A DNA stretch of 64,000 bases, taken from positions 32,001 through 96,000 of the forward strand of contig CAVSOU010000017.1 of NCBI GenBank assembly GCA_963729625.1, written 5' to 3'. Both the position numbers and the translations under genes were made by a program. Under the pieces are notes generated by a model. The model was not told the origin of the DNA, did not search any database, and saw nothing but the letters and a program-made list of their open reading frames with translations. Shown piece by piece: positions 53,792-63,158 of this stretch (its first letter is position 1; each line of letters opens with the position of its first letter). The DNA is from an uncultured bacterium (GTDB taxonomy: Bacteria; Chloroflexota; UBA5177; JANWHV01).

Positions 53792-54072
53792 CACTGCCGA
53801 CCCATTCAACGGTACGTGCTTGGCCTCCGGCTGCGGCCTATGTCTTCCTGCAAGTCTTCAGGCGCGTCCCGGGCTCGACCGGCCTCGCGCTGTTGTTCGC
53901 CTAACGCGACACATCCGGCGCGACAGCCGCGAGCAGTCGGCGCGTAACAGCACCGTATGACCCGCGCCTGGCGGATTCGCAGGCAGCCGGTGACACACGC
54001 ATGAGCCCGGTGGTACGATAGGGCCGGTCCTCTGACTCGCTCGGCACCACCTGCGCTTCTAGCAGTACCTGT

Positions 54073-54180
54073 CTAGCCGTGGACGGCAGCGGCGGTATCT
54101 ACGTGGCGGATTATGGGAACAACCGGGTGCCGCACTTCCCTGCCTCCGGTGCGGCACAGGCCGAGCACAGCTATGGAGGG
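54073..54180 (+). pseudogene. Isolated NHL-repeat remnant
   Basis: Manual translation LAVDGSGGIYVADYGNNRVPHF; no start codon. Confidence 0.65.
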
Positions 54181-54308
54181 CGATATCGGGAGGCAGGTAG
54201 GGGAACCAGGTCCGCTGGATGAGCGCGCCATCAGCCGCGCGGGTCGACGATATAGGGTATCGGGCCCGAGGAGCACGCCGAGCAGGCAGCAAGACGAGGA
54301 GGCAAGCG

Positions 54309-57300
54309 ATGAAGGTGCGTCACTGGCTTCGCACGGCGCTGTGCGCGCTGGCAATCTGTATGACATGGCCGAGTTACGCAGCGCACGGTGCCCCCCGCGC
54401 CACCGCTGCTGCCGCGCCCTCGCCAGCTGGCGTACCGGCCGGCTGGCTCTCCACGTCGGCCCTCGGGACCACGCCGGCAGATGTGTTGCCCCAAGCATTC
54501 GTGGCGTCCGCTGCCCAATGGCGCGCGCTGCCGCTGCAGATCGCCGAACAGGCCGCACCGGCATTTCAGGACGCGGCGGGCGGCGGCGGCGCCGCGGCCG
54601 CCCTGCTGGCGCAGACGTTGCTCGGCCAGAATATCGTCACCCCTGACCCACGCGCGCTGGCGCAGAATCGCCTCAGCGCGGTCCTGGGCCCACTCGCGCA
54701 AACGCTCGGCGTGGCGACGTCTGCGGCGTCGACCACCTCGGGCTCGTCTGGGCTGGCCGCCGATCTGGTCGATCCGGCCAGCGGCGTCCTGCACGTCACC
54801 TATCAGGACTTCTCAGTTCCCGCGCGCGGCCAGCCGATGGCCCTGCAGCGCACCTTTGTCTCGGGTAACACTGCCGCGAGCGCCATGGGCAACGGCTGGG
54901 CCTTCACCTATGGCATCCACCTCGCCTACGATGCCAGCGGCAATCCGCTCATCGAGGAAGCGGCCGGCGGCGTCACCCACTTTGCGTTCTGGCAGGCCCC
55001 CTCCACCTACATTGCCCTGGACGCGCCGGGATGGGAGGTCCTTTGGCTACACCCCGGCGGTGCCACCCAGTTGATGGCTGACGGCAGCAGCCATCAATTC
55101 GATGCTCTCGGCCGGCTCGTGCGGCTCCAGGATCGCGACGGCATTGGGCTGACCATCAACTACAGGGGCGCCAATCTGGCGTCCGTAGTGGATGCGGCCG
55201 GCCGCAGCCTCCGCTTCACCGAGAATAGCGCCGGCCTGATCAGCACGATCACCGATCCTATGGGTGCCGTCATCCGTTATGGGCATGATGGCGCCGGTAA
55301 TCTGATCAGCGTGACCACTGCCGCCGGCGCCACTACCCGCTACGCCTACAGCACTCCCACGAGCGATAGTTACGACACCGCGCGCCTCACCGGCATCACC
55401 CTCCCTCGCGGCGGCACAATCCACTTCAGCTACGACAGCGGGGCCCGTGTCTCGCGCGTTGCCGGGCCCGGCACCATGAACACTGCGATCACCTACGCGG
55501 ACAACGCCGCTCCAGGCACGGTACGCACCGATCTCGTCGATGCGACCGGCGCGCACACGGAGATCGACACGTTCAACACTTCGCCCCTGACGACCGGCGT
55601 GCAACTGCCTGTCGTCACGCGTCTCGTGGATGCCACCGGGAGAACCACGACCGTTACAAGCGGACCTTCAGGTGTCACCATCGAGGACGGCGAGGGCAGG
55701 ATGAAGCCGGTGGCTAGCAACGCGGGTGGACCGGCGAGCACGATCCAGGCGCCACAGACCGGCGCCAACCGCTTGGGTTATGATCAGGCCACCTCCACGC
55801 TGTCCATGCTGACCGGCATTTCCGGACGGCCCACCACACTGGTGTACGATGCGGCAGGCCATCTGGCCGGCATCCGTGACGCTACCGGCGCGCTGACCAA
55901 AGTCGAGCAGATCGCCCCGCTCACGTTCCACGTGGTCAGCCCCAATAGTGGAGTCGCCATCCTGCAGTTCGACGCTGCAGGAAACGTCATCGCGCTGACC
56001 GACGCCATGGGTCGCAAGACCACGTTCCTCTGGGATCCTGACGGCCGGCTGACCGGCATCTCCGACCCGGCCCATGGCCGGCTTACCTTTCGGTATGGCC
56101 CGTCAGGCGCCCTGCTGGCCCGCACAGATGCGCTCGGAGCGGTGACCAGCTACAGCTACGACGCCGACGGCGATCTCACCTCGATGCGGGATGCCCTGGG
56201 CGACACCTGGCGCTTCACCTATGACGCCTTCGACCTGCCGGTGAGCGTGGTCGATCCGCTGGGCGACACGGATCGTCTCAGTTACGACGACGCTGGCAGG
56301 CTGACGATGGTCACCGACCCACTTGGGGCAGTCACCCGGGCGGGCTATGACGGCGCCGGCCGCGTGGCCTCCGTCACCGATCCGCTCGGCCATACCACGC
56401 GCTACCGCTACGGAGCCGCCGGCGAGCTCGTCGCGGCGACGAGCCCTGCCGGGCGCACCACGCGGTATAGCTACGATGCCGCCGGCCAGCCGGTCGTCGT
56501 GACGGACGCCGATGGCAGCAGCACAACGCTGATGTACGACGACGCCGGGCGGTTAACCGCCAGTCGCGCCGGCGCCGGTCCCACGACCGAGTACCGGTAC
56601 GACGCAGTGGGACGGCTGACGCAGCGTACCGTACCCGATGAGTCGGGGGCCTCGTACACCTACGATGCTGCGGGCTACCTGGTGAGCGCCGGCAACGGGA
56701 GCGGCACCATCCGCGACGCGTACGACGCAGCCGGCGATCTCACCTCGACGGTGGACACGAGCGGCCACACGATCCGCTACAGCTACGATGCGGCGGGCCG
56801 GCGGGCGACCATGACCTCTGCCACCGGCACGGTTACCCGCTACGCGTATGACGCGGCCGGCCACATCAGCGCGATCGATGATCCCCTGGGCAGCTCGACC
56901 TTCCGCTACGACGTGCGGGGAGAACGCGTTGCCGCGACGCTGCCGGGCGGCATCGCCGTCTCGTATCTCTACGATAAAGCGGACCGGCTCACGGCACTCA
57001 CCTACAAGCACGGCGCCACCGTGGTGGCCCGTTTCGTCTACGGCTACGACCGAGACGGCAACGTGGTGCAGGAGCAGGCCCTGGGCGACACCCTGCGCTA
57101 CCGCTACGACGCAGCAAACCGGCTCACTGCCATGCAGGGCAGCACCCGGAGCGACGACGCCAGCTACGCCTACGACGCCGATGGCAATCTCCTCTCCTCG
57201 GCCAGTCGTGGCGCCTTGCGCTACGACGCGGCCGGACGGCTGCTCACAGCTGGGAGCGCGAGCATGGCCTACGATCCTGCCGGCAGGGCGATGACCGGCC

Positions 57301-60300
57301 TGGCAGGTGCCATCTATGGCTATGACCAGAGCGGCAATCTGCTGGCGGCGCACACCAGCGGTGCCGACGTCATGTACGGCGAGGATGCGCTGGGCAGGAT
57401 CGTCACGCGCTTGGAGGCCGGCAACACGACGCTGACGGTCTATGACGGCAGTGATCCGGTCGCCGCATTCGGCCCGATCCCGTCGGTGGTCGCCCGCAAC
57501 GTCTATGGCCCCTGGATCGACGAGCCGCTCGCCTTTTCGGCGAACGGACAGACGTACACCTACGTCGTGGATCGGCTTGGCTCCGTGCGCATGGTGCTGG
57601 ACGGCGCGGGCACGCCCGTCGCCACGCTGCGCTACGACGCATACGGCAGGCTGCTCGGAAAGACGGGGTCCGGGCCAACGACGCTCGGCTTCGCCGGTCG
57701 TCCCTACGACCCGGCCACGGGCCTGATCGATCTGCGCGACCGCCTCTACGATCCAGCGCTGGCCCGCTTCCTTTCCCCCGACCCCCTGGCCCGTCCCGGC
57801 GCGGCGGACTATCCCTACGCGGCAGACAGCCCCGCGACGCGGAGCGATCCCCTCGGCCTGTGTGCGGAGTCCTCGGGGGAGGGGCCCAGCAACTCGACGC
57901 TCGGGGTGTTTGCAGCCGAGTCAAGCGGCCTGCCGGAACTCCTGGGGGAGACTTTCGGGCAGGCGTTCAGTGGCTACGGGGCCTGGCACCAAATCGAGCA
58001 GTTCAACGCGGCGAACGCGGCGTTTGGTGACGGCTGTAAGGGCGTGAACAACACGGATCCCACCTTCATCGACGCCGCCGGCGTTGCCGCTACCGACCGC
58101 GGCAGCGAGGCAGGTAACTCAACGCTGGCGCTCACCAGGGGCGCGTCTGGCGGATCCGTCGAAGCGCTGTTCCCCGTTGCAGCGGCCGGCACGGTGACCA
58201 TAGGCGTGTACGACGCGCATGGCCACCTCACGCGCGCGCTGGCGGCGCAACCCGCCTCACCGCCTGTCCTGGATATCACATGGGACGGGCGCGATACGGC
58301 CGGGCACGAGGTTGCCGACGGCACCTACTATATGCTGGAGACTGAACAACCCGCTGCTGCGGGCGCGCAGGCGACGTGTGCGCTGCGCACTATCGCGGTG
58401 ACGGCAGGGGCTTCCGGGCCCTTCGTCGTGCCCGTGCTGTCGGTCCCACCGGCGACCTCCAGCGTATCAGCGAAGATCGTCACGCCGGTCAGTGGCGCCC
58501 TGGTTCGCGGCCTCGTGCCCATCGACGGTGTGGCGTCGGGGTCGGACTTCGATCATTATCAGCTCGACTACGGCCCGGGCACTAGTCCCACCCGCTGGAC
58601 CGGCATCCGGGCCACAGTCTCGGGCACGGCAGGCGTGCCCGACAAAGGGCCCGTGACGCTCGCCCTGCTGCACACCCTTTCGGGCAACCTTGGTTCCCTG
58701 GATACCGGGCTCTCGGACTACTTCTACTATCGATCGAGCGGCGCCCAGGGCCTGAGCGGACTCTACACCATACGCCTGCGCGTGTTCGGTCGCCACGGTG
58801 AAGTAGCCCAGGCACTCGCCTGGATCGTCGTTGGACGCGTGGCCACCTACGTGCAGGACGCGACCATCGCCAGCCCGTCCGGGCTGGCAAGCCTGGCCGT
58901 GCCCAGTATGGCCATCCACGACATCGCCCAGGTGTTTGCTGTGCTGCCTCTGACCTCAACGGAGCCGATCCCCGCGCAGCTGCGGCCTCTATCTCGGGTC
59001 TACGCGCTGCATCCTTCCGGCTACGTGTTCAGCATCCCGGCGACCTTGAGCATGCACATCTCCACGACCGCGCCTGGCGCGGCGATCTATGCCTGGGACG
59101 CCGGTACCAATAGGTGGCAGCCACTACGGACGTCGGTTGCAGGCGCGAAGCACGGCACGACGCTCAGCACGCCCGTCGCGCGCCTCAACCAGGCGCCGGC
59201 CCTCTACGCCGTGTTTGCGCCCATTGCCGCCCCCGCGCCGCCGCTGCTCTTCCCGCTCGGGGCTGCACCCAGCGGTGCCACCACAGTCACTCTCGCCGCA
59301 GCTACCCGACCTGGGCTGCTCGTACAGGTTCTCTCGGCTGGGCGGCCCACTGGCGTGCCCGTTGTCGCTGGTGCCGACGGCCTGGCCGTGATTCCAGGCA
59401 TCCACCTCCAATCGGGGCAAAATCGTTTCACCGCCGTGGCACGCGATAGCGCTGGGCACATCAGTGCCCCCTCACAAGCGATCAGTGTCACCGCCGCGCC
59501 GAAGACACTGGAACTCCTGGATCCCGCTACAACTCTGCCGGCGAAGGTCACTGACCTCGCGGCCGTGCCACGTCCTGCGCAGGCCGGCCCGCCGCCGCCG
59601 GTCGTCAATTCGCCCACGCTGCATGCCGTGCTGGCAGCGGAGTTCCACCGGCCGCAGGACCTCTGGCCGGGGCGAACGGCGCCGCTCGGCGCCAGCACCA
59701 CGGTGGTGACCGACGGGGGTCACACCGCGCTCGAGATCACGGCAGGTGGCACGGGCGATCTGACCACCGGTGTGCCCGTTTCGTCCTTCAATCTCGCCAC
59801 GCACCCCTTGATCACGTTCTCCTATAAGGTGCCCCCGACTGTATCGGTTGACCTTGCCATACACGCAAACGGCACCTGGTGGGTGGCGCCATTGAGCGAC
59901 CCTCCTCCAACGGCCAACGATTTCGCGCGCGTCTACTTCTTTCCACTGGGCGACTACCCATCGCTTAAGTTGGTTCGCGATAATCGTTGGCACGACATCA
60001 CGCTCAATCTCTACCAACTGATTCGGGATCAGCAGCCAACAGGACCGGTCGTCGTGGACCGCATGGCCTTCGGCGATTGGGAGCCCAGCGGCTGGCTCGG
60101 CGTTCGACCGTCAAGCGCAAACGCACCTGCCACTAGCTTCCTGCTCGACCACGTGGCCCTGCCGGCGGTGAGCCGGATATCGACCGCGTCCTTTTCCTGG
60201 TCTGAACCTGCCGGCCAGGGCATTTCCGCGTACAGCTACCTGCTCGATCAGAAGCCCAGTACCGTGCCGCCCGCCCGCTCGATGGGGCTCGCCCCCGCGA

Positions 60301-63014
60301 CCACGGTTGGCCCGTTGCCAACCGGCGGCTATTGGCTGCATGTGCGCGCACGCGGCCGGACCGGCGTCTGGGGGGCGGCAGCCAACTACCCCTTCGTGAT
60401 CGACACGCTGCCCCTACGGGTTGGCACGCCGCAGCCGGGACCGGGCGGAACGGGAACCGCCTTCGTCACGGTGCCGATCAGTGACCCGGGCGCGAGCGGG
60501 GTCGACGCCTCCACCATTCGCCTCCAGGTGTTCGGCAAGACCTACGGTCCCGGAAGCGACATCGTCAGCTACGATCTCTCCGCAGGGGCGGCTACCCTCA
60601 ACATTGGCTACATTCAGCCTGCCCCCCAAAACTTGTTCCCTGGTGGGAAGGTGCCTGTCGTCCTGCTCGCGGCATCTGATGCCGCAGGCAACAGCATTGT
60701 CCGACCGATAGCCTGGACGTATACGCTTGATATTCCCACTGCGCTGCCAGGTGGCGCCCAGCTGCTGACCACCCGTGGCGGAGACTCGCCAACCTTCTCT
60801 CCCGACGGCACGCGAGTTGCCTTCATTTCCCACCGCATCGGAGCAGCGCATGTGTGGACTATCGACGCCGGCGACCTGGGAGAGAAGCACGGCACCGCCC
60901 GCCAGATTGTCAGCGGACCGGGGGTCGATGCCGATCCGGCATGGTCGCCCACCGGCGATGTGATCGCCTTCGACTCGACCCGTAATGGTAGTCGCCAGCT
61001 CTACCTCGTGCAGCCCAACGGCGCTGGTTTGCGGCAGATTTCGAGCAGCGCCGGCGGAGCTATGCAGCCGACCTGGTCGCCGGACGGCAAACAGATCGCC
61101 TTCGTGAGCGACGGCAACCTCATGGTGGTCAATCGGGACGGCAGCGGCCTGCGTACCGTGATCGCCGACGGGGAGCACGCTGTGCGCGATCCGTCCTGGT
61201 CGCCGGACGGCAGGGTGATTGCCTTTCGCCATAGCCTGTACGTCGACCAGATCTGGACCGTGCGCCCGGACGGCACACACGACGGCATCTTGACGTCGCT
61301 GGCGAGCGGTGAATCACAGTCCTCGCCGGCCTGGCTGGCGGACGGTCGCGTGGCCTACGTCTCACTGCGCGAGAAGGTGTCCGCCCTGTACGCGGTCGAG
61401 CCCGACGGCACTGAGCAGAACACCTTGGCCGGCCAACCGCCCGCGCAGTTGTTCACGCCAGCGGCCTCGCGCGACGGCTCGACCATCGCCTTCGTTTCCA
61501 CCCTGGCTGGCGGACACAACATCTTCGTCAGCCGACAATTCCGCATCGAGCCACTGGACGTAAGTGCCGAGAGCTTCGACCCAACCGCCGGCCACGCGGT
61601 GGCCATCCGCTACGGCCTCACCTCGTCGGCCACGGTCTCCATCGGGATCACCGACAGCAACGAGCACACGGTACGCACGCTTGTCGTGCACAAGTTGCTG
61701 CCCGCCGGCGTGCGGCAGCTGACCTGGGATGGCAGGGACGATCGGGGCCGTCTGCTGGGCGAGGGTGTGTACTCCGTCCAGGTGGCCGGGCAAGCACCGG
61801 GCCTGCCTGTGCTCAAGCGCGGGTTGGGCGTGACGATCGACGACGTGAGCCAGCACGGTACATTGGTCATCGCAGTGACCGACAAAGGGCGACCTGCGGG
61901 TGGCGCCGCGCTCACGGTGCTACGGGCCGGCACGCAGTCCTACGTCGAACAGGACATGACCGGCAGGACAGGCTCGAGCACGATCAGCCTCAGTCCGGGC
62001 ATCTACGACGTGCTTGCGCAGGCGGATAACGGCGACCAGGGCGTGGCAAGCAATCTCGTCGTGCGTCGACACGGCGCGCTGAGCCACGCGATCAAGCTCG
62101 CCGTGCCCGCAGTGCCGTCGCCCGGCGCGTCAGCCACGGCCCCTGTTTCCAGCCCAGCCGTCCAGAAGTCGGCGACGCCGATCGGCAGTGCGACTGCGGC
62201 CAGTACGCCAACAGCCACTACCGCTGCGGCCGCCGGAACACCTGCGGCCAGTGCCACGTCCCCGGCGAGCAAGGGAAATACGGGCACGCTGGTCGTGTCC
62301 GTGCAGACGTCGCCCGGCCATTCGGCGATTGACGCCGGAGTTGATGTCTACCTGGGGAGCCGGCTGATTAGTTACGGTGGCACCGACAGCACTGGTGTGA
62401 TCACGTTCACCGTTAGCCCGGGCACCTACTCCATCCAGATCCGGCTGGCTGCCGCGACCGCTACGATCAGCACCGTGAAAGTCTCTCTCGGTAGGGTCAC
62501 CCGGCAAACAGTGACCCTCGGTTCCGGCACGCTGAAGGTGCAGGTGGACCTGGTAGCAGGCAGGCCGGCGGTTGACGCCGATGTCGAGGTCTATCGCGGG
62601 AGCACACTGGTTAGCTACGGCGGCACGGACAGCACCGGCAGGATCACATTCACCCTCAACGCCGGCAGCTATGCCATACAGGCGAGCCTCGGGAAAGCAA
62701 CGGGGCCTGTGGTCACCGCGACGGTCGAGGGCGGCGCGGTGGCGCTGAGCACGGTGGTGCTGAACGCCGGCCAGCTTGTCGTGAAAGTGCTCACGAAGTC
62801 GGGAGCACCGGCGGTTGGTGCCGAGGTGGATATTTCTCAGGGGGGCACACTTCTCGCTTACGACGACACCGACAGCACCGGTGCGGTCACGTTCACGCTC
62901 AACGCGGGCACCTACACCGTGCAGGCGAGCCTCGGCGGCGCCACGAACAAGTCGCTCTCGGTGCACGTGAGCGCGGGTGGCACCAGCAGCTACACTACCA
63001 CGTTGGGAAGATAG
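54309..63014 (+). CDS. Giant secreted RHS/YD-repeat protein with C-terminal FlgD/Ig, TolB-like propeller and beta-sandwich repeats
   Basis: GAGGAGG RBS, Sec-type signal, DUF6531-like segment, YD repeats, RHS core RLYDPALARFLSPDP..SPATRSDPLG, two WDGRD motifs, PxWSPDG repeats. Confidence 0.9.
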   Translation: MKVRHWLRTALCALAICMTWPSYAAHGAPRATAAAAPSPAGVPAGWLSTSALGTTPADVLPQAFVASAAQWRALPLQIAEQAAPAFQDAAGGGGAAAALLAQTLLGQNIVTPDPRALAQNRLSAVLGPLAQTLGVATSAASTTSGSSGLAADLVDPASGVLHVTYQDFSVPARGQPMALQRTFVSGNTAASAMGNGWAFTYGIHLAYDASGNPLIEEAAGGVTHFAFWQAPSTYIALDAPGWEVLWLHPGGATQLMADGSSHQFDALGRLVRLQDRDGIGLTINYRGANLASVVDAAGRSLRFTENSAGLISTITDPMGAVIRYGHDGAGNLISVTTAAGATTRYAYSTPTSDSYDTARLTGITLPRGGTIHFSYDSGARVSRVAGPGTMNTAITYADNAAPGTVRTDLVDATGAHTEIDTFNTSPLTTGVQLPVVTRLVDATGRTTTVTSGPSGVTIEDGEGRMKPVASNAGGPASTIQAPQTGANRLGYDQATSTLSMLTGISGRPTTLVYDAAGHLAGIRDATGALTKVEQIAPLTFHVVSPNSGVAILQFDAAGNVIALTDAMGRKTTFLWDPDGRLTGISDPAHGRLTFRYGPSGALLARTDALGAVTSYSYDADGDLTSMRDALGDTWRFTYDAFDLPVSVVDPLGDTDRLSYDDAGRLTMVTDPLGAVTRAGYDGAGRVASVTDPLGHTTRYRYGAAGELVAATSPAGRTTRYSYDAAGQPVVVTDADGSSTTLMYDDAGRLTASRAGAGPTTEYRYDAVGRLTQRTVPDESGASYTYDAAGYLVSAGNGSGTIRDAYDAAGDLTSTVDTSGHTIRYSYDAAGRRATMTSATGTVTRYAYDAAGHISAIDDPLGSSTFRYDVRGERVAATLPGGIAVSYLYDKADRLTALTYKHGATVVARFVYGYDRDGNVVQEQALGDTLRYRYDAANRLTAMQGSTRSDDASYAYDADGNLLSSASRGALRYDAAGRLLTAGSASMAYDPAGRAMTGLAGAIYGYDQSGNLLAAHTSGADVMYGEDALGRIVTRLEAGNTTLTVYDGSDPVAAFGPIPSVVARNVYGPWIDEPLAFSANGQTYTYVVDRLGSVRMVLDGAGTPVATLRYDAYGRLLGKTGSGPTTLGFAGRPYDPATGLIDLRDRLYDPALARFLSPDPLARPGAADYPYAADSPATRSDPLGLCAESSGEGPSNSTLGVFAAESSGLPELLGETFGQAFSGYGAWHQIEQFNAANAAFGDGCKGVNNTDPTFIDAAGVAATDRGSEAGNSTLALTRGASGGSVEALFPVAAAGTVTIGVYDAHGHLTRALAAQPASPPVLDITWDGRDTAGHEVADGTYYMLETEQPAAAGAQATCALRTIAVTAGASGPFVVPVLSVPPATSSVSAKIVTPVSGALVRGLVPIDGVASGSDFDHYQLDYGPGTSPTRWTGIRATVSGTAGVPDKGPVTLALLHTLSGNLGSLDTGLSDYFYYRSSGAQGLSGLYTIRLRVFGRHGEVAQALAWIVVGRVATYVQDATIASPSGLASLAVPSMAIHDIAQVFAVLPLTSTEPIPAQLRPLSRVYALHPSGYVFSIPATLSMHISTTAPGAAIYAWDAGTNRWQPLRTSVAGAKHGTTLSTPVARLNQAPALYAVFAPIAAPAPPLLFPLGAAPSGATTVTLAAATRPGLLVQVLSAGRPTGVPVVAGADGLAVIPGIHLQSGQNRFTAVARDSAGHISAPSQAISVTAAPKTLELLDPATTLPAKVTDLAAVPRPAQAGPPPPVVNSPTLHAVLAAEFHRPQDLWPGRTAPLGASTTVVTDGGHTALEITAGGTGDLTTGVPVSSFNLATHPLITFSYKVPPTVSVDLAIHANGTWWVAPLSDPPPTANDFARVYFFPLGDYPSLKLVRDNRWHDITLNLYQLIRDQQPTGPVVVDRMAFGDWEPSGWLGVRPSSANAPATSFLLDHVALPAVSRISTASFSWSEPAGQGISAYSYLLDQKPSTVPPARSMGLAPATTVGPLPTGGYWLHVRARGRTGVWGAAANYPFVIDTLPLRVGTPQPGPGGTGTAFVTVPISDPGASGVDASTIRLQVFGKTYGPGSDIVSYDLSAGAATLNIGYIQPAPQNLFPGGKVPVVLLAASDAAGNSIVRPIAWTYTLDIPTALPGGAQLLTTRGGDSPTFSPDGTRVAFISHRIGAAHVWTIDAGDLGEKHGTARQIVSGPGVDADPAWSPTGDVIAFDSTRNGSRQLYLVQPNGAGLRQISSSAGGAMQPTWSPDGKQIAFVSDGNLMVVNRDGSGLRTVIADGEHAVRDPSWSPDGRVIAFRHSLYVDQIWTVRPDGTHDGILTSLASGESQSSPAWLADGRVAYVSLREKVSALYAVEPDGTEQNTLAGQPPAQLFTPAASRDGSTIAFVSTLAGGHNIFVSRQFRIEPLDVSAESFDPTAGHAVAIRYGLTSSATVSIGITDSNEHTVRTLVVHKLLPAGVRQLTWDGRDDRGRLLGEGVYSVQVAGQAPGLPVLKRGLGVTIDDVSQHGTLVIAVTDKGRPAGGAALTVLRAGTQSYVEQDMTGRTGSSTISLSPGIYDVLAQADNGDQGVASNLVVRRHGALSHAIKLAVPAVPSPGASATAPVSSPAVQKSATPIGSATAASTPTATTAAAAGTPAASATSPASKGNTGTLVVSVQTSPGHSAIDAGVDVYLGSRLISYGGTDSTGVITFTVSPGTYSIQIRLAAATATISTVKVSLGRVTRQTVTLGSGTLKVQVDLVAGRPAVDADVEVYRGSTLVSYGGTDSTGRITFTLNAGSYAIQASLGKATGPVVTATVEGGAVALSTVVLNAGQLVVKVLTKSGAPAVGAEVDISQGGTLLAYDDTDSTGAVTFTLNAGTYTVQASLGGATNKSLSVHVSAGGTSSYTTTLGR
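62280..63011 (+). repeat. Three 81-aa (243-bp) C-terminal beta-sandwich repeats
   Basis: TDSTG motifs start at 62382, 62625 and 62868. Confidence 0.85.
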
Positions 63015-63158
63015 GCGTGAACGGTACGCATGGCATCGCTCTAGCAAAGGGACTGGAACTCAATCCCAGCCTCGGTATTGCGGTGCACGAGGCGTCGTGC
63101 ACCGGTGAAGACCAATAGACCGAGCCTGGATTATTCAGGAACCCTGACGGAAACGAGC

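Follow-up and report, generated by a model that had tools for sequence, protein, structure and literature searches.

The window analysed here is a stretch of 64,000 nucleotides of contig CAVSOU010000017.1 from the metagenome-assembled genome GCA_963729625.1 (hereafter G000; 87% complete, 5% contamination) of a soil or sediment Chloroflexota bacterium. Its forward strand carries a gene of 2,901 codons plus stop (54309..63014, +) that encodes an RHS/YD-repeat cage protein of unusual order, in which a signal-peptide-type N-terminus is followed by a complete RHS cage with an intact autoprotease motif, a segment of 65 residues, and a body of about 1,650 residues built from surface-protein domains. 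The gene occupies a single open frame (54219-63014, +) with the ATG at 54309 as likely start, which is preceded by 6 nt by a Shine-Dalgarno-like GAGGAGG (54296..54302, +) read directly from the sequence. The open reading frame (ORF) list and the translation give the same gene, and an identical protein of 2,901 amino acids is present in the database (P0004). Residue numbers are counted below from 54219, the start of the open frame, and not from the ATG. As read by eye, the leader is of the Sec type (54309..54380, +; MKVRHWLR, a hydrophobic core, and SYA before an alanine) and reads MKVRHWLRTALCALAICMTWPSYA, followed by A after the putative cleavage point; the orthologue in the same-genus genome G001 has an N-terminus of the same kind. 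PAAR, VgrG, SpvB, and TcB parts were found neither in the protein nor in the 14 neighbouring ORFs scanned. The signal-peptide-type N-terminus and the lack of type VI secretion system (T6SS) parts in this set agree with the Sec-type export proposed in the initial annotation of this DNA.

The cage starts with DUF6531, the N-terminal element of RHS cages (residues 182-242; 54762..54944, +; Pfam 40 bits, cut-off 24.1), and continues as an RHS/YD repeat shell (54945..57632, +) that scored 321.1 bits in 15 stretches with RHS_repeat and 270.6 bits with YD_repeat_2x (TIGR01643). The size of the shell is about 1,030 residues, and its sequence matches in the PDB are Rhs, Tse15, teneurin-like, and teneurin shells. 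An Rhs-associated core follows (residues 1139-1214; 57633..57860, +; TIGR03696 Rhs_assc_core, 60.1 bits, cut-off 32.5), the C-terminus of which reads ...RDRLYDPALARFLSPDPLARPGAADYPYAADSPATRSDPLGL. It contains the motif DPLA-x18-DPLG-L, with an arginine 13 residues before the first aspartate (R1175, D1188, D1210, and L1214). Hence, all features that mark an RHS/YD cage protein are present, namely a repeat array, a core above the curated cut-off, and a bipartite DPxG-x18-DPxG motif with an upstream arginine. Indeed, the DUF6531-like segment, the YD array, and the complete core that had been recognized earlier by motif were all recovered with Pfam and NCBIfam. The pentapeptide DPLGL lies exactly where it had been placed (57846-57860), the longer string RSDPLGL given for the same positions starting 6 nt earlier, at 57840. 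The catalytic roles were derived from the spacing of the residues and not from a structure, in comparison with the pattern of R2103, D2116, D2140, and the chain end L2144 in the solved bacterial teneurin-like protein BiTLP (PMC13018210). The same catalytic pattern is described for the mosquito salivary gland surface protein SGS1 and for TcC (PMC9935623). The triad is kept in 14/14 fused relatives, i.e. proteins in which an RHS cage precedes the same body. As the triad is intact, cleavage is predicted, most likely by autoproteolysis after L1214 (DPLGL). Beyond the core, the frame goes on for 1,717 codons, as the translation confirms for the in-frame continuation claimed before, so that the protein does not finish with a short toxin domain of up to about 35 kDa. 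An NHL domain inside the protein was not matched with Pfam, the TEN_YD-shell model reached 44.2 bits, below its cut-off of 50, and no FN-plug was detected in the Pfam scan, no structural search for an FN-plug having been made.

The part of the protein behind the predicted cut consists of two unequal pieces. The smaller one is the post-cleavage segment or C-terminal domain (CTD), which comprises 65 amino acids and about 7 kDa (57861..58055, +) and is predicted to be helical and not hydrophobic. Only three cysteines occur in the mature G000 protein, and two of them, Cys1215 and Cys1273, flank this segment. Pfam scans did not assign it to a toxin family. In 14/14 fused proteins, a variable segment of 65-200 amino acids (7-22 kDa) is situated between the cleavage site and a junction motif, and in half of them (7/14) it is strongly hydrophobic, defined as a 19-residue window with a Kyte-Doolittle value of at least 1.6. 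The maximum window value in the G000 segment is 0.68, and thus no hydrophobic window is present. According to the alignment, the G000 segment is homologous to part of a longer hydrophobic segment in G003, G004 (two further genomes of the same genus), and the database protein P0007, which comprises 126 amino acids in G003. The segment of G000 and G001 represents a shortened (65-70 residues), non-hydrophobic homologue, with a ratio of nonsynonymous to synonymous substitution rates (dN/dS) of 0.45; in G003 and G004, the hydrophobic segment is more constrained than any other part (dN/dS 0.09). A hydrophobic window upstream of the junction motif was found in 7/13 fused versus 3/27 non-fused proteins, two of the latter three being N-terminal signal sequences. 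The possibility that the hydrophobic stretch is the relic signal peptide of a downstream gene was rejected, as it extends over 50-90 residues (at least two helices), displays a dN/dS of 0.09, and recurs in distant clades.

The junction motif DPTFID (of the DPTFIQ type, [DC]P[TS][FY][IV]x; residues 1280-1285; 58056..58073, +) opens the body. It is present in 14/14 fused proteins, and D66, P67, T68, and F69 (tail numbering) are invariant in alignment A1. It also precedes the body in 27 RHS-less representatives, where it comes after Cys-rich arrays, Ig domains, an HExxH region, or a signal peptide. The tail is a cage-sized segment plus an autonomous body and not one cargo.

The fused architecture given in the initial annotation is real, as it is conserved in three same-genus genomes and in metagenome proteins. 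Indeed, G001, G003, and G004 keep the whole tail (71%, 52%, and 53% identity; open frames of 2,906, 3,144, and 2,911 amino acids, respectively), and in the alignment all three have the same RHS-to-tail junction. The fourth of the four same-genus genomes (83% complete, 720 contigs) gave a PD40-level match only. The conclusions do not depend on the unpublished genome G018, which enters only a tally of 35 of 41. The same arrangement occurs in the database proteins P0005, P0006, P0007, and P0018, in a second clade with RHS before the body (P0098, P0100, P0112, and P0216), and in a third group (P0188, P0192, P0198, P0202, P0208, and P0210); the fused proteins form three groups in a quick version of the RHS tree. 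Every segment of the protein is under purifying selection. For G000/G001 and for G003/G004, the Nei-Gojobori dN/dS values of the 12 segments ranged from 0.09 to 0.87, none of them reaching 1. In this order of the pairs, they amounted to 0.28 and 0.18 for the shell, 0.18 and 0.10 for the core, and about 0.10 and 0.11 for the propeller in the body. Eight public sequencing runs are available, none of them recorded as RNA; contigs from four of these that lie on 57300-58700 at 90% likeness are 61-199 bases long and of low depth, too short for any of them to bridge 57846-57860; support for the junction comes from orthologues, not from reads.

The body family was delimited by an exhaustive protein search with profile A2, made from residues 1399-2179 of four orthologues. 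The matched proteins number 2,339 with a cut-off of E <= 1e-3 and 351 with one of E <= 1e-30, and they contain two recurrent multi-domain blocks, A (profile positions 10-365) and B (390-775). Among the best 150 representatives, 12 had RHS in front of the body and one had RHS behind it, with a 206-amino-acid tail. A separation of RHS and tail into distinct genes is therefore not the rule in all relatives, given the 14 fused members, yet most body relatives lack RHS. P0136, P0078, P0082, and P0160 display the same order of FlgD_ig, modules A and B, PD40, and FlgD_ig without RHS, often with extra carbohydrate-binding modules (CBMs). The heads of the RHS-less relatives consist of Cys-rich repeat arrays, Ig domains, an HExxH-containing region (P0153), or a head of 330 amino acids without assignment, or there is none. 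P0075 and P0204 are such headless forms, in which the signal peptide is closely followed by the motif. In P0153, the head of 170 amino acids contains HEMVH, of the HExxH type (residues ~90-110), just before DPSFIQ and may be a metallopeptidase. Of 301 sampled Chloroflexota genomes, five gave a match to the body at E <= 1e-20, four of this genus (G000 included) and G045, of another Chloroflexota family. The G045 protein (L031:4843-11460; G045:C49) has the 330-amino-acid head, for which Pfam gave no match, followed by about 90 very hydrophobic amino acids, NADPSFIV, and the same body, without RHS. As judged from these sequences, the RHS unit is one of several exchangeable N-terminal heads on an autonomous body family. 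No description of the RHS-body architecture or of the body family was found in the openly available full-text papers searched.

Long post-core tails are rare, not unique. The post-core part was measured in 54 long RHS proteins whose cores are similar; it has no more than 532 residues in 43 of them and at least 818 in 11. These 11 comprise five members of this family, three proteins with a second RHS array, and three with tails without Pfam match. The last three (P0067, P0026, and P0058) are unrelated RHS proteins with 818-1,183 post-core residues and may represent further over-sized tails. In P0045, the core (residues 560-670) is followed by a second DUF6531 and RHS array, and P0021 and P0023 are alike by their listed Pfam families, which would make two tandem cages.

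The order of domains in the body, over about 1,650 residues, is FlgD-Ig, Ig, ZU5, FN3, CBM-like jelly-roll, Y_Y_Y/FN3, Ig, PD40 propeller, FlgD-Ig, and four prealbumin-like repeats. The folds between the first FlgD-Ig and the propeller were derived from an AlphaFold2 (AF2) model of residues 1399-2179 (781 residues) built on 46 sequences, with a mean predicted local distance difference test (pLDDT) value of 86.9 and a predicted template modelling score of 0.81, which was compared with 48,161 chains by VIA-align. Foldseek with the whole 781-residue model gave generic Ig-array matches only (titin, S-layer, and macroglobulins), and the domain calls therefore rest on VIA-align. The ESM Atlas gave no usable match, and a PDB profile search with A1 returned nothing for the modules between FlgD-Ig and PD40. 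A low-confidence model of tail residues 1-986, based on the six-sequence alignment A1, was left out of the fold assignments.

The first FlgD Ig-like domain (residues ~1311-1386; 58149..58376, +) was detected with Pfam FlgD_ig and NCBIfam FlgD models. Module A starts with an Ig-like beta-sandwich (58443..58835, +; model positions 11-141), with VIA-align Z values of 10.5 (6tn6_A) and 9.6 (RbmA, 4be5_A). Next comes a ZU5-like domain (58833..59222, +; model positions 141-270), which matches ankyrin ZU5 (3f59_A) with a Z value of 12.9 and a root mean square deviation of 2.2 Å over 118 of its 149 residues, three ZU5 entries being top-ranked. Inspection of the sequences by eye, without a structural check of the site, revealed no conserved HFS- or CxH-type autocleavage motif in the ZU5 domain, these motifs being defined as usual or as in section 8 of PMC3482391. 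The last domain of module A is FN3/Big_13-like (59226..59507, +; Z about 10.5, model positions 272-365), with Big_13 in 3/6 family members. Module B consists of a CBM-like beta-jelly-roll (59610..60182, +; model positions 400-590), similar to CBM30 (2c24, Z 10.5), CBM8 (7t7z, Z 10.3), and CBM11 (1v0a, Z 10.2), a Y_Y_Y/FN3-like domain (60183..60407, +; model positions 590-665) with FN3 matches and with Pfam Y_Y_Y in 4/6 family members, and an Ig-like domain (60450..60737, +) seen as strands in the AF2 model (positions 684-772, pLDDT >90). The PD40 (TolB-type) beta-propeller (60771..61538, +) scored 111.9 bits in five stretches (residues 2190-2372), with TolB models matching below their cut-offs, and is followed by the second FlgD Ig-like domain (61590..61793, +; best FlgD_ig stretch at residues 2458-2525). 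The C-terminal part starts with a divergent prealbumin/CarboxypepD_reg-like unit (61854..62096, +), which has local alignment scores of 56-76 against the three C-terminal repeats. A linker of 62 amino acids (62097..62282, +), 77% of which are S/T/A/P, connects it to these three repeats of 81 amino acids (62283..63011, +), which are in register, share 37-42 of 81 identities, are prealbumin/CarboxypepD_reg-like, and end the protein. They matched bMG3 and CarbopepD_reg_2 below cut-off, and CarboxypepD_reg passes in the relative P0018 (69.9 bits). They were seen in the protein only, as Tandem Repeats Finder found no repeat in the DNA of 61800-63100. All tail domains that had initially been called by motif hold with Pfam, NCBIfam, the AF2 model with VIA-align, and the repeat alignment. 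As a whole, the body looks like a glycan- or cell-binding scaffold, which may act in adhesion.

The surroundings of the gene vary. By tblastx, the flanks of G000, G001, and G003 have no adjoining gene in common, and only G003 and G004 share downstream genes, the order being the gene itself, DUF1326, and a copper chaperone. Downstream of the gene in the window, no ORF that is conserved or carries a Pfam domain was found, a result that leaves room for small unannotated immunity genes. The roughly 3 kb on its 3' side (63015-66000) have a lower G+C content (about 63%) and contain short ORFs only, without Pfam matches. The G001 orthologue (71-82% identical) stands in another flanking context, so that gene context differs within one genus. 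Upstream, a stop-bounded stretch of 66 codons in a different frame (54022-54219, +) contains one NHL repeat (~54070-54129; Pfam 24.9 bits, cut-off 20) and looks like what is left of a gene with an NHL domain. Elsewhere, the same genome encodes another RHS protein, of about 2,900 amino acids (G000:C8:559711-568500, -). As read by eye from the translation, it has the classical order, with long Thr/Pro-rich, Ig-like, and NHL-like N-terminal modules, a shell, DPSGL, and a hydrophobic-looking tail of about 290 amino acids.

RHS cages are seen as closed containers with a cavity that restricts how large the part behind the cut can be, and RHS cores have their cleavage site in the interior of the shell. 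From the latter, the simplest reading would be that the short segment is inside and that the chain leaves the shell. A tail of about 175 kDa is far above any documented cargo and, with a shell of about 1,030 residues, this requires a location of the body outside the cage. For TcC, the largest natural cargo amounts to 35.1 kDa (PMC6868009), and bacterial teneurin-like CTDs average about 15 kDa, with a cavity of about 44,000 Å3 in BiTLP that is suggested by the authors to constrain CTD length (PMC13018210). The segments of 7-22 kDa in the fused proteins fall within the range of these cargoes. Thus, the initial annotation rightly considered the tail too large to be caged; its notion of a single large cargo has to be replaced by that of a 65-amino-acid segment plus a body. 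Its interpretation is supported in part and refined in this way. By analogy with SGS1 and teneurins, it is moderately probable that the gene product is exported via Sec and forms a surface protein of two parts, with the short segment in the cage, the body outside, and the chain leaving the shell. The complete cage (DUF6531 element, YD shell, and core with intact Arg/Asp/Asp autoprotease) would cut the chain after DPLGL (L1214). The 65 residues after the cut, the only stretch of a size that a cage could hold, would be enclosed, and the body of about 1,650 residues, from DPTFID onward, would be located outside. After cleavage, cage and body would be joined only via the short enclosed segment.

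Several points weigh against this arrangement. Cleavage is predicted from motif conservation only, the binding role of the body is suggested by its domain types, and the opening in this shell is assumed by analogy, whereas the solved bacterial teneurin-like protein is described without a shell opening (PMC13018210). The junction motif also occurs without RHS and hence does not in itself serve as a signal for exit; a second processing step might take place there. The hydrophobic segment of 7/14 fused proteins would suit a membrane-active toxin inside the cage, or a hairpin that serves as membrane anchor, better than it would suit a passive tether. Furthermore, the G045 protein pairs a hydrophobic segment with the motif without any RHS, indicating that the two do not strictly need a cage. 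Finally, the AF2 model that includes the 65-amino-acid segment (tail residues 1-986) is of low confidence there (mean pLDDT 41.8).

The hydrophobic segments suggest a different function, namely that of a polymorphic-toxin-type weapon with inverted geometry. As in BiTLP, Tse5, or SGS1, a membrane-active peptide would be caged after DPxGL, the C-terminal body would attach to the producer or the target, and a trigger would cause release from the cage and membrane insertion, the G000 copy being weakened or repurposed. The hydrophobic windows in 7/14 fused proteins, their rarity upstream of the motif in non-fused proteins, the strong constraint on the G003/G004 segment, and the alignment of the G000 segment to part of it are all in favour of this. 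In addition, the CTD of BiTLP is hydrophobic and permeabilises Escherichia coli when exported (PMC13018210), and SGS1 cages predicted transmembrane helices (PMC9935623). Such a weapon is nevertheless rather unlikely here, as no conserved immunity-like gene was found downstream (nothing next to the gene is common to G000, G001, and G003), the segment is conserved and not hypervariable within the Chloroflexota clade, the G000 segment lacks a hydrophobic window, and toxicity of the segment is a conjecture from sequence. A further argument against a classical toxin system is the lack of T6SS parts in the protein and the scanned neighbours. Still, the possible non-toxin use put forward in the initial annotation is not borne out, given the strong hydrophobicity of the segment in half of the fused relatives; the family may still be a toxin system, of which the copy in this genome may be a reduced version.

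Alternatively, the cage could be a disposable N-terminal pro-part, cut off after export at DPLGL and possibly also at the Asp-Pro bond of DPTFID, whereupon cage and peptide would dissociate and the body alone would be functional. The intact triad in 14/14 fused proteins implies that cleavage matters, and the body works without RHS in most relatives, including the headless P0075 and P0204. The Asp-Pro bond in the junction motif is of a chemically labile kind. In SGS1, a second cut removes the distal C-terminal domain (PMC9935623). However, a cage of 1,000 residues that is maintained by purifying selection (dN/dS 0.18-0.28) would be a costly leader, cutting at the junction motif is a conjecture, and the paired cysteines at the segment ends suggest a stapled loop that holds the pieces together, which makes this option improbable. 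It is barely credible, and already contradicted, that the gene is an artefact, produced by wrong assembly or by a recent chance read-through that joined an RHS gene to an adjacent gene for a surface protein. The incompleteness and contamination of the source genome and the short public-run contigs, none spanning 57846-57860, would allow for it, but this junction recurs in genomes assembled independently and in proteins from metagenomes, at 38-71% identity, as well as in two more distant groups, dN/dS is below 1 in all segments, and the gene sits in a 330-kb contig. The two-part surface protein with a caged segment and an external body thus stays the favoured reading. An unlikely, more far-reaching version of it would be a bacterial prototype of the threaded cage of teneurins and SGS1, in which the autoprotease frees the N-terminus of a short peptide inside the shell, the C-terminus of which remains on a giant external adhesin. 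DPTFIQ would then be a head-release or head-swap site across more than 2,000 surface proteins with interchangeable warheads, the RHS-headed members delivering a doubly excised membrane-active peptide of 65-200 amino acids.

To our knowledge, RHS shells that let a chain out have been described only in animals, namely in teneurins and SGS1, which are of presumed bacterial descent. A conserved bacterial family with both an intact autoprotease and an external continuation of 1,600-1,900 residues would mean that the combination of a cage with a C-terminal body outside it was not invented by animals. It may offer a tractable bacterial system to study the exit of a chain from an RHS shell and the role of self-cleavage in cases where the product does not fit into the cage. 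In addition, the body defines a large, apparently undescribed family of surface proteins with a fixed body, exchangeable N-terminal heads, and a sharply conserved Asp-Pro junction motif. Both aspects are of relevance for specialists of RHS, teneurin, and Tc proteins.

Compared with known systems, the closest relatives of the body are the RHS-less proteins (P0136, P0078, P0082, P0160, and the G045 protein), which have the same junction motif and body domain order but other N-terminal heads or none. T6SS Rhs effectors and TcB-TcC cocoons (7q97, 8h8a, 8cp6, and 6h6g) share the cage fold family, the core, and the autoproteolysis motif, and TcB-TcC provides the cargo limit of about 35 kDa (PMC6868009). 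They differ in that the present protein has a Sec-type leader, no PAAR, VgrG, SpvB, or TcB part, and a tail far over the cargo limit. Bacterial teneurin-like or WapA-type Sec-exported RHS toxins have in common with it the Sec signal, the cage, the DPxG-x18-DPxG motif, and a small, often hydrophobic CTD (PMC13018210). However, their adhesion modules are N-terminal, their CTD of about 15 kDa ends the protein and is described as fully enclosed in a shell without opening, and an immunity gene is reported to follow almost every gene (PMC13018210), whereas in the present case the large modules are C-terminal, the chain goes on for about 1,650 amino acids, and no conserved downstream gene was found. 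Teneurins (6fb3) resemble it by a YD shell with a 126-amino-acid internal linker that exits via a gap to external domains (PMC5851990). Furthermore, their shell is part of a surface adhesion protein, and the PDB sequence matches have E values of 1e-16 to 1e-19. In contrast to the intact triad found here, teneurins are described as lacking the cleavage motif and as uncleaved (PMC13018210; PMC9935623), and they are type II membrane proteins with an FN-plug and NHL, neither of which was detected in the present protein. As described in PMC9935623, SGS1 (8fjp) has an Rhs/YD shell with all three catalytic residues and with the post-cut segment inside, from which the chain passes through a mid-opening to external C-terminal parts, a second processing step removing the distal domain. 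The Rhs core of the G000 protein matches that of SGS1 by sequence (E 2.4e-15). SGS1 differs in being eukaryotic, in its reported lack of a classical signal peptide, in the receptor domains that decorate its shell, and in its size, with about 630 amino acids after the core, of which about 230 are caged (PMC9935623), compared with an unrelated body of about 1,650 amino acids and a non-hydrophobic caged candidate of 65 amino acids in the present protein. With its intact protease, caged helices, and exit through a mid-opening, SGS1 is a closer precedent than the teneurins (PMC9935623). The RHS cage with an external continuation is already known from these animal proteins, and the protein encoded in the window would, by analogy, be its bacterial variant.

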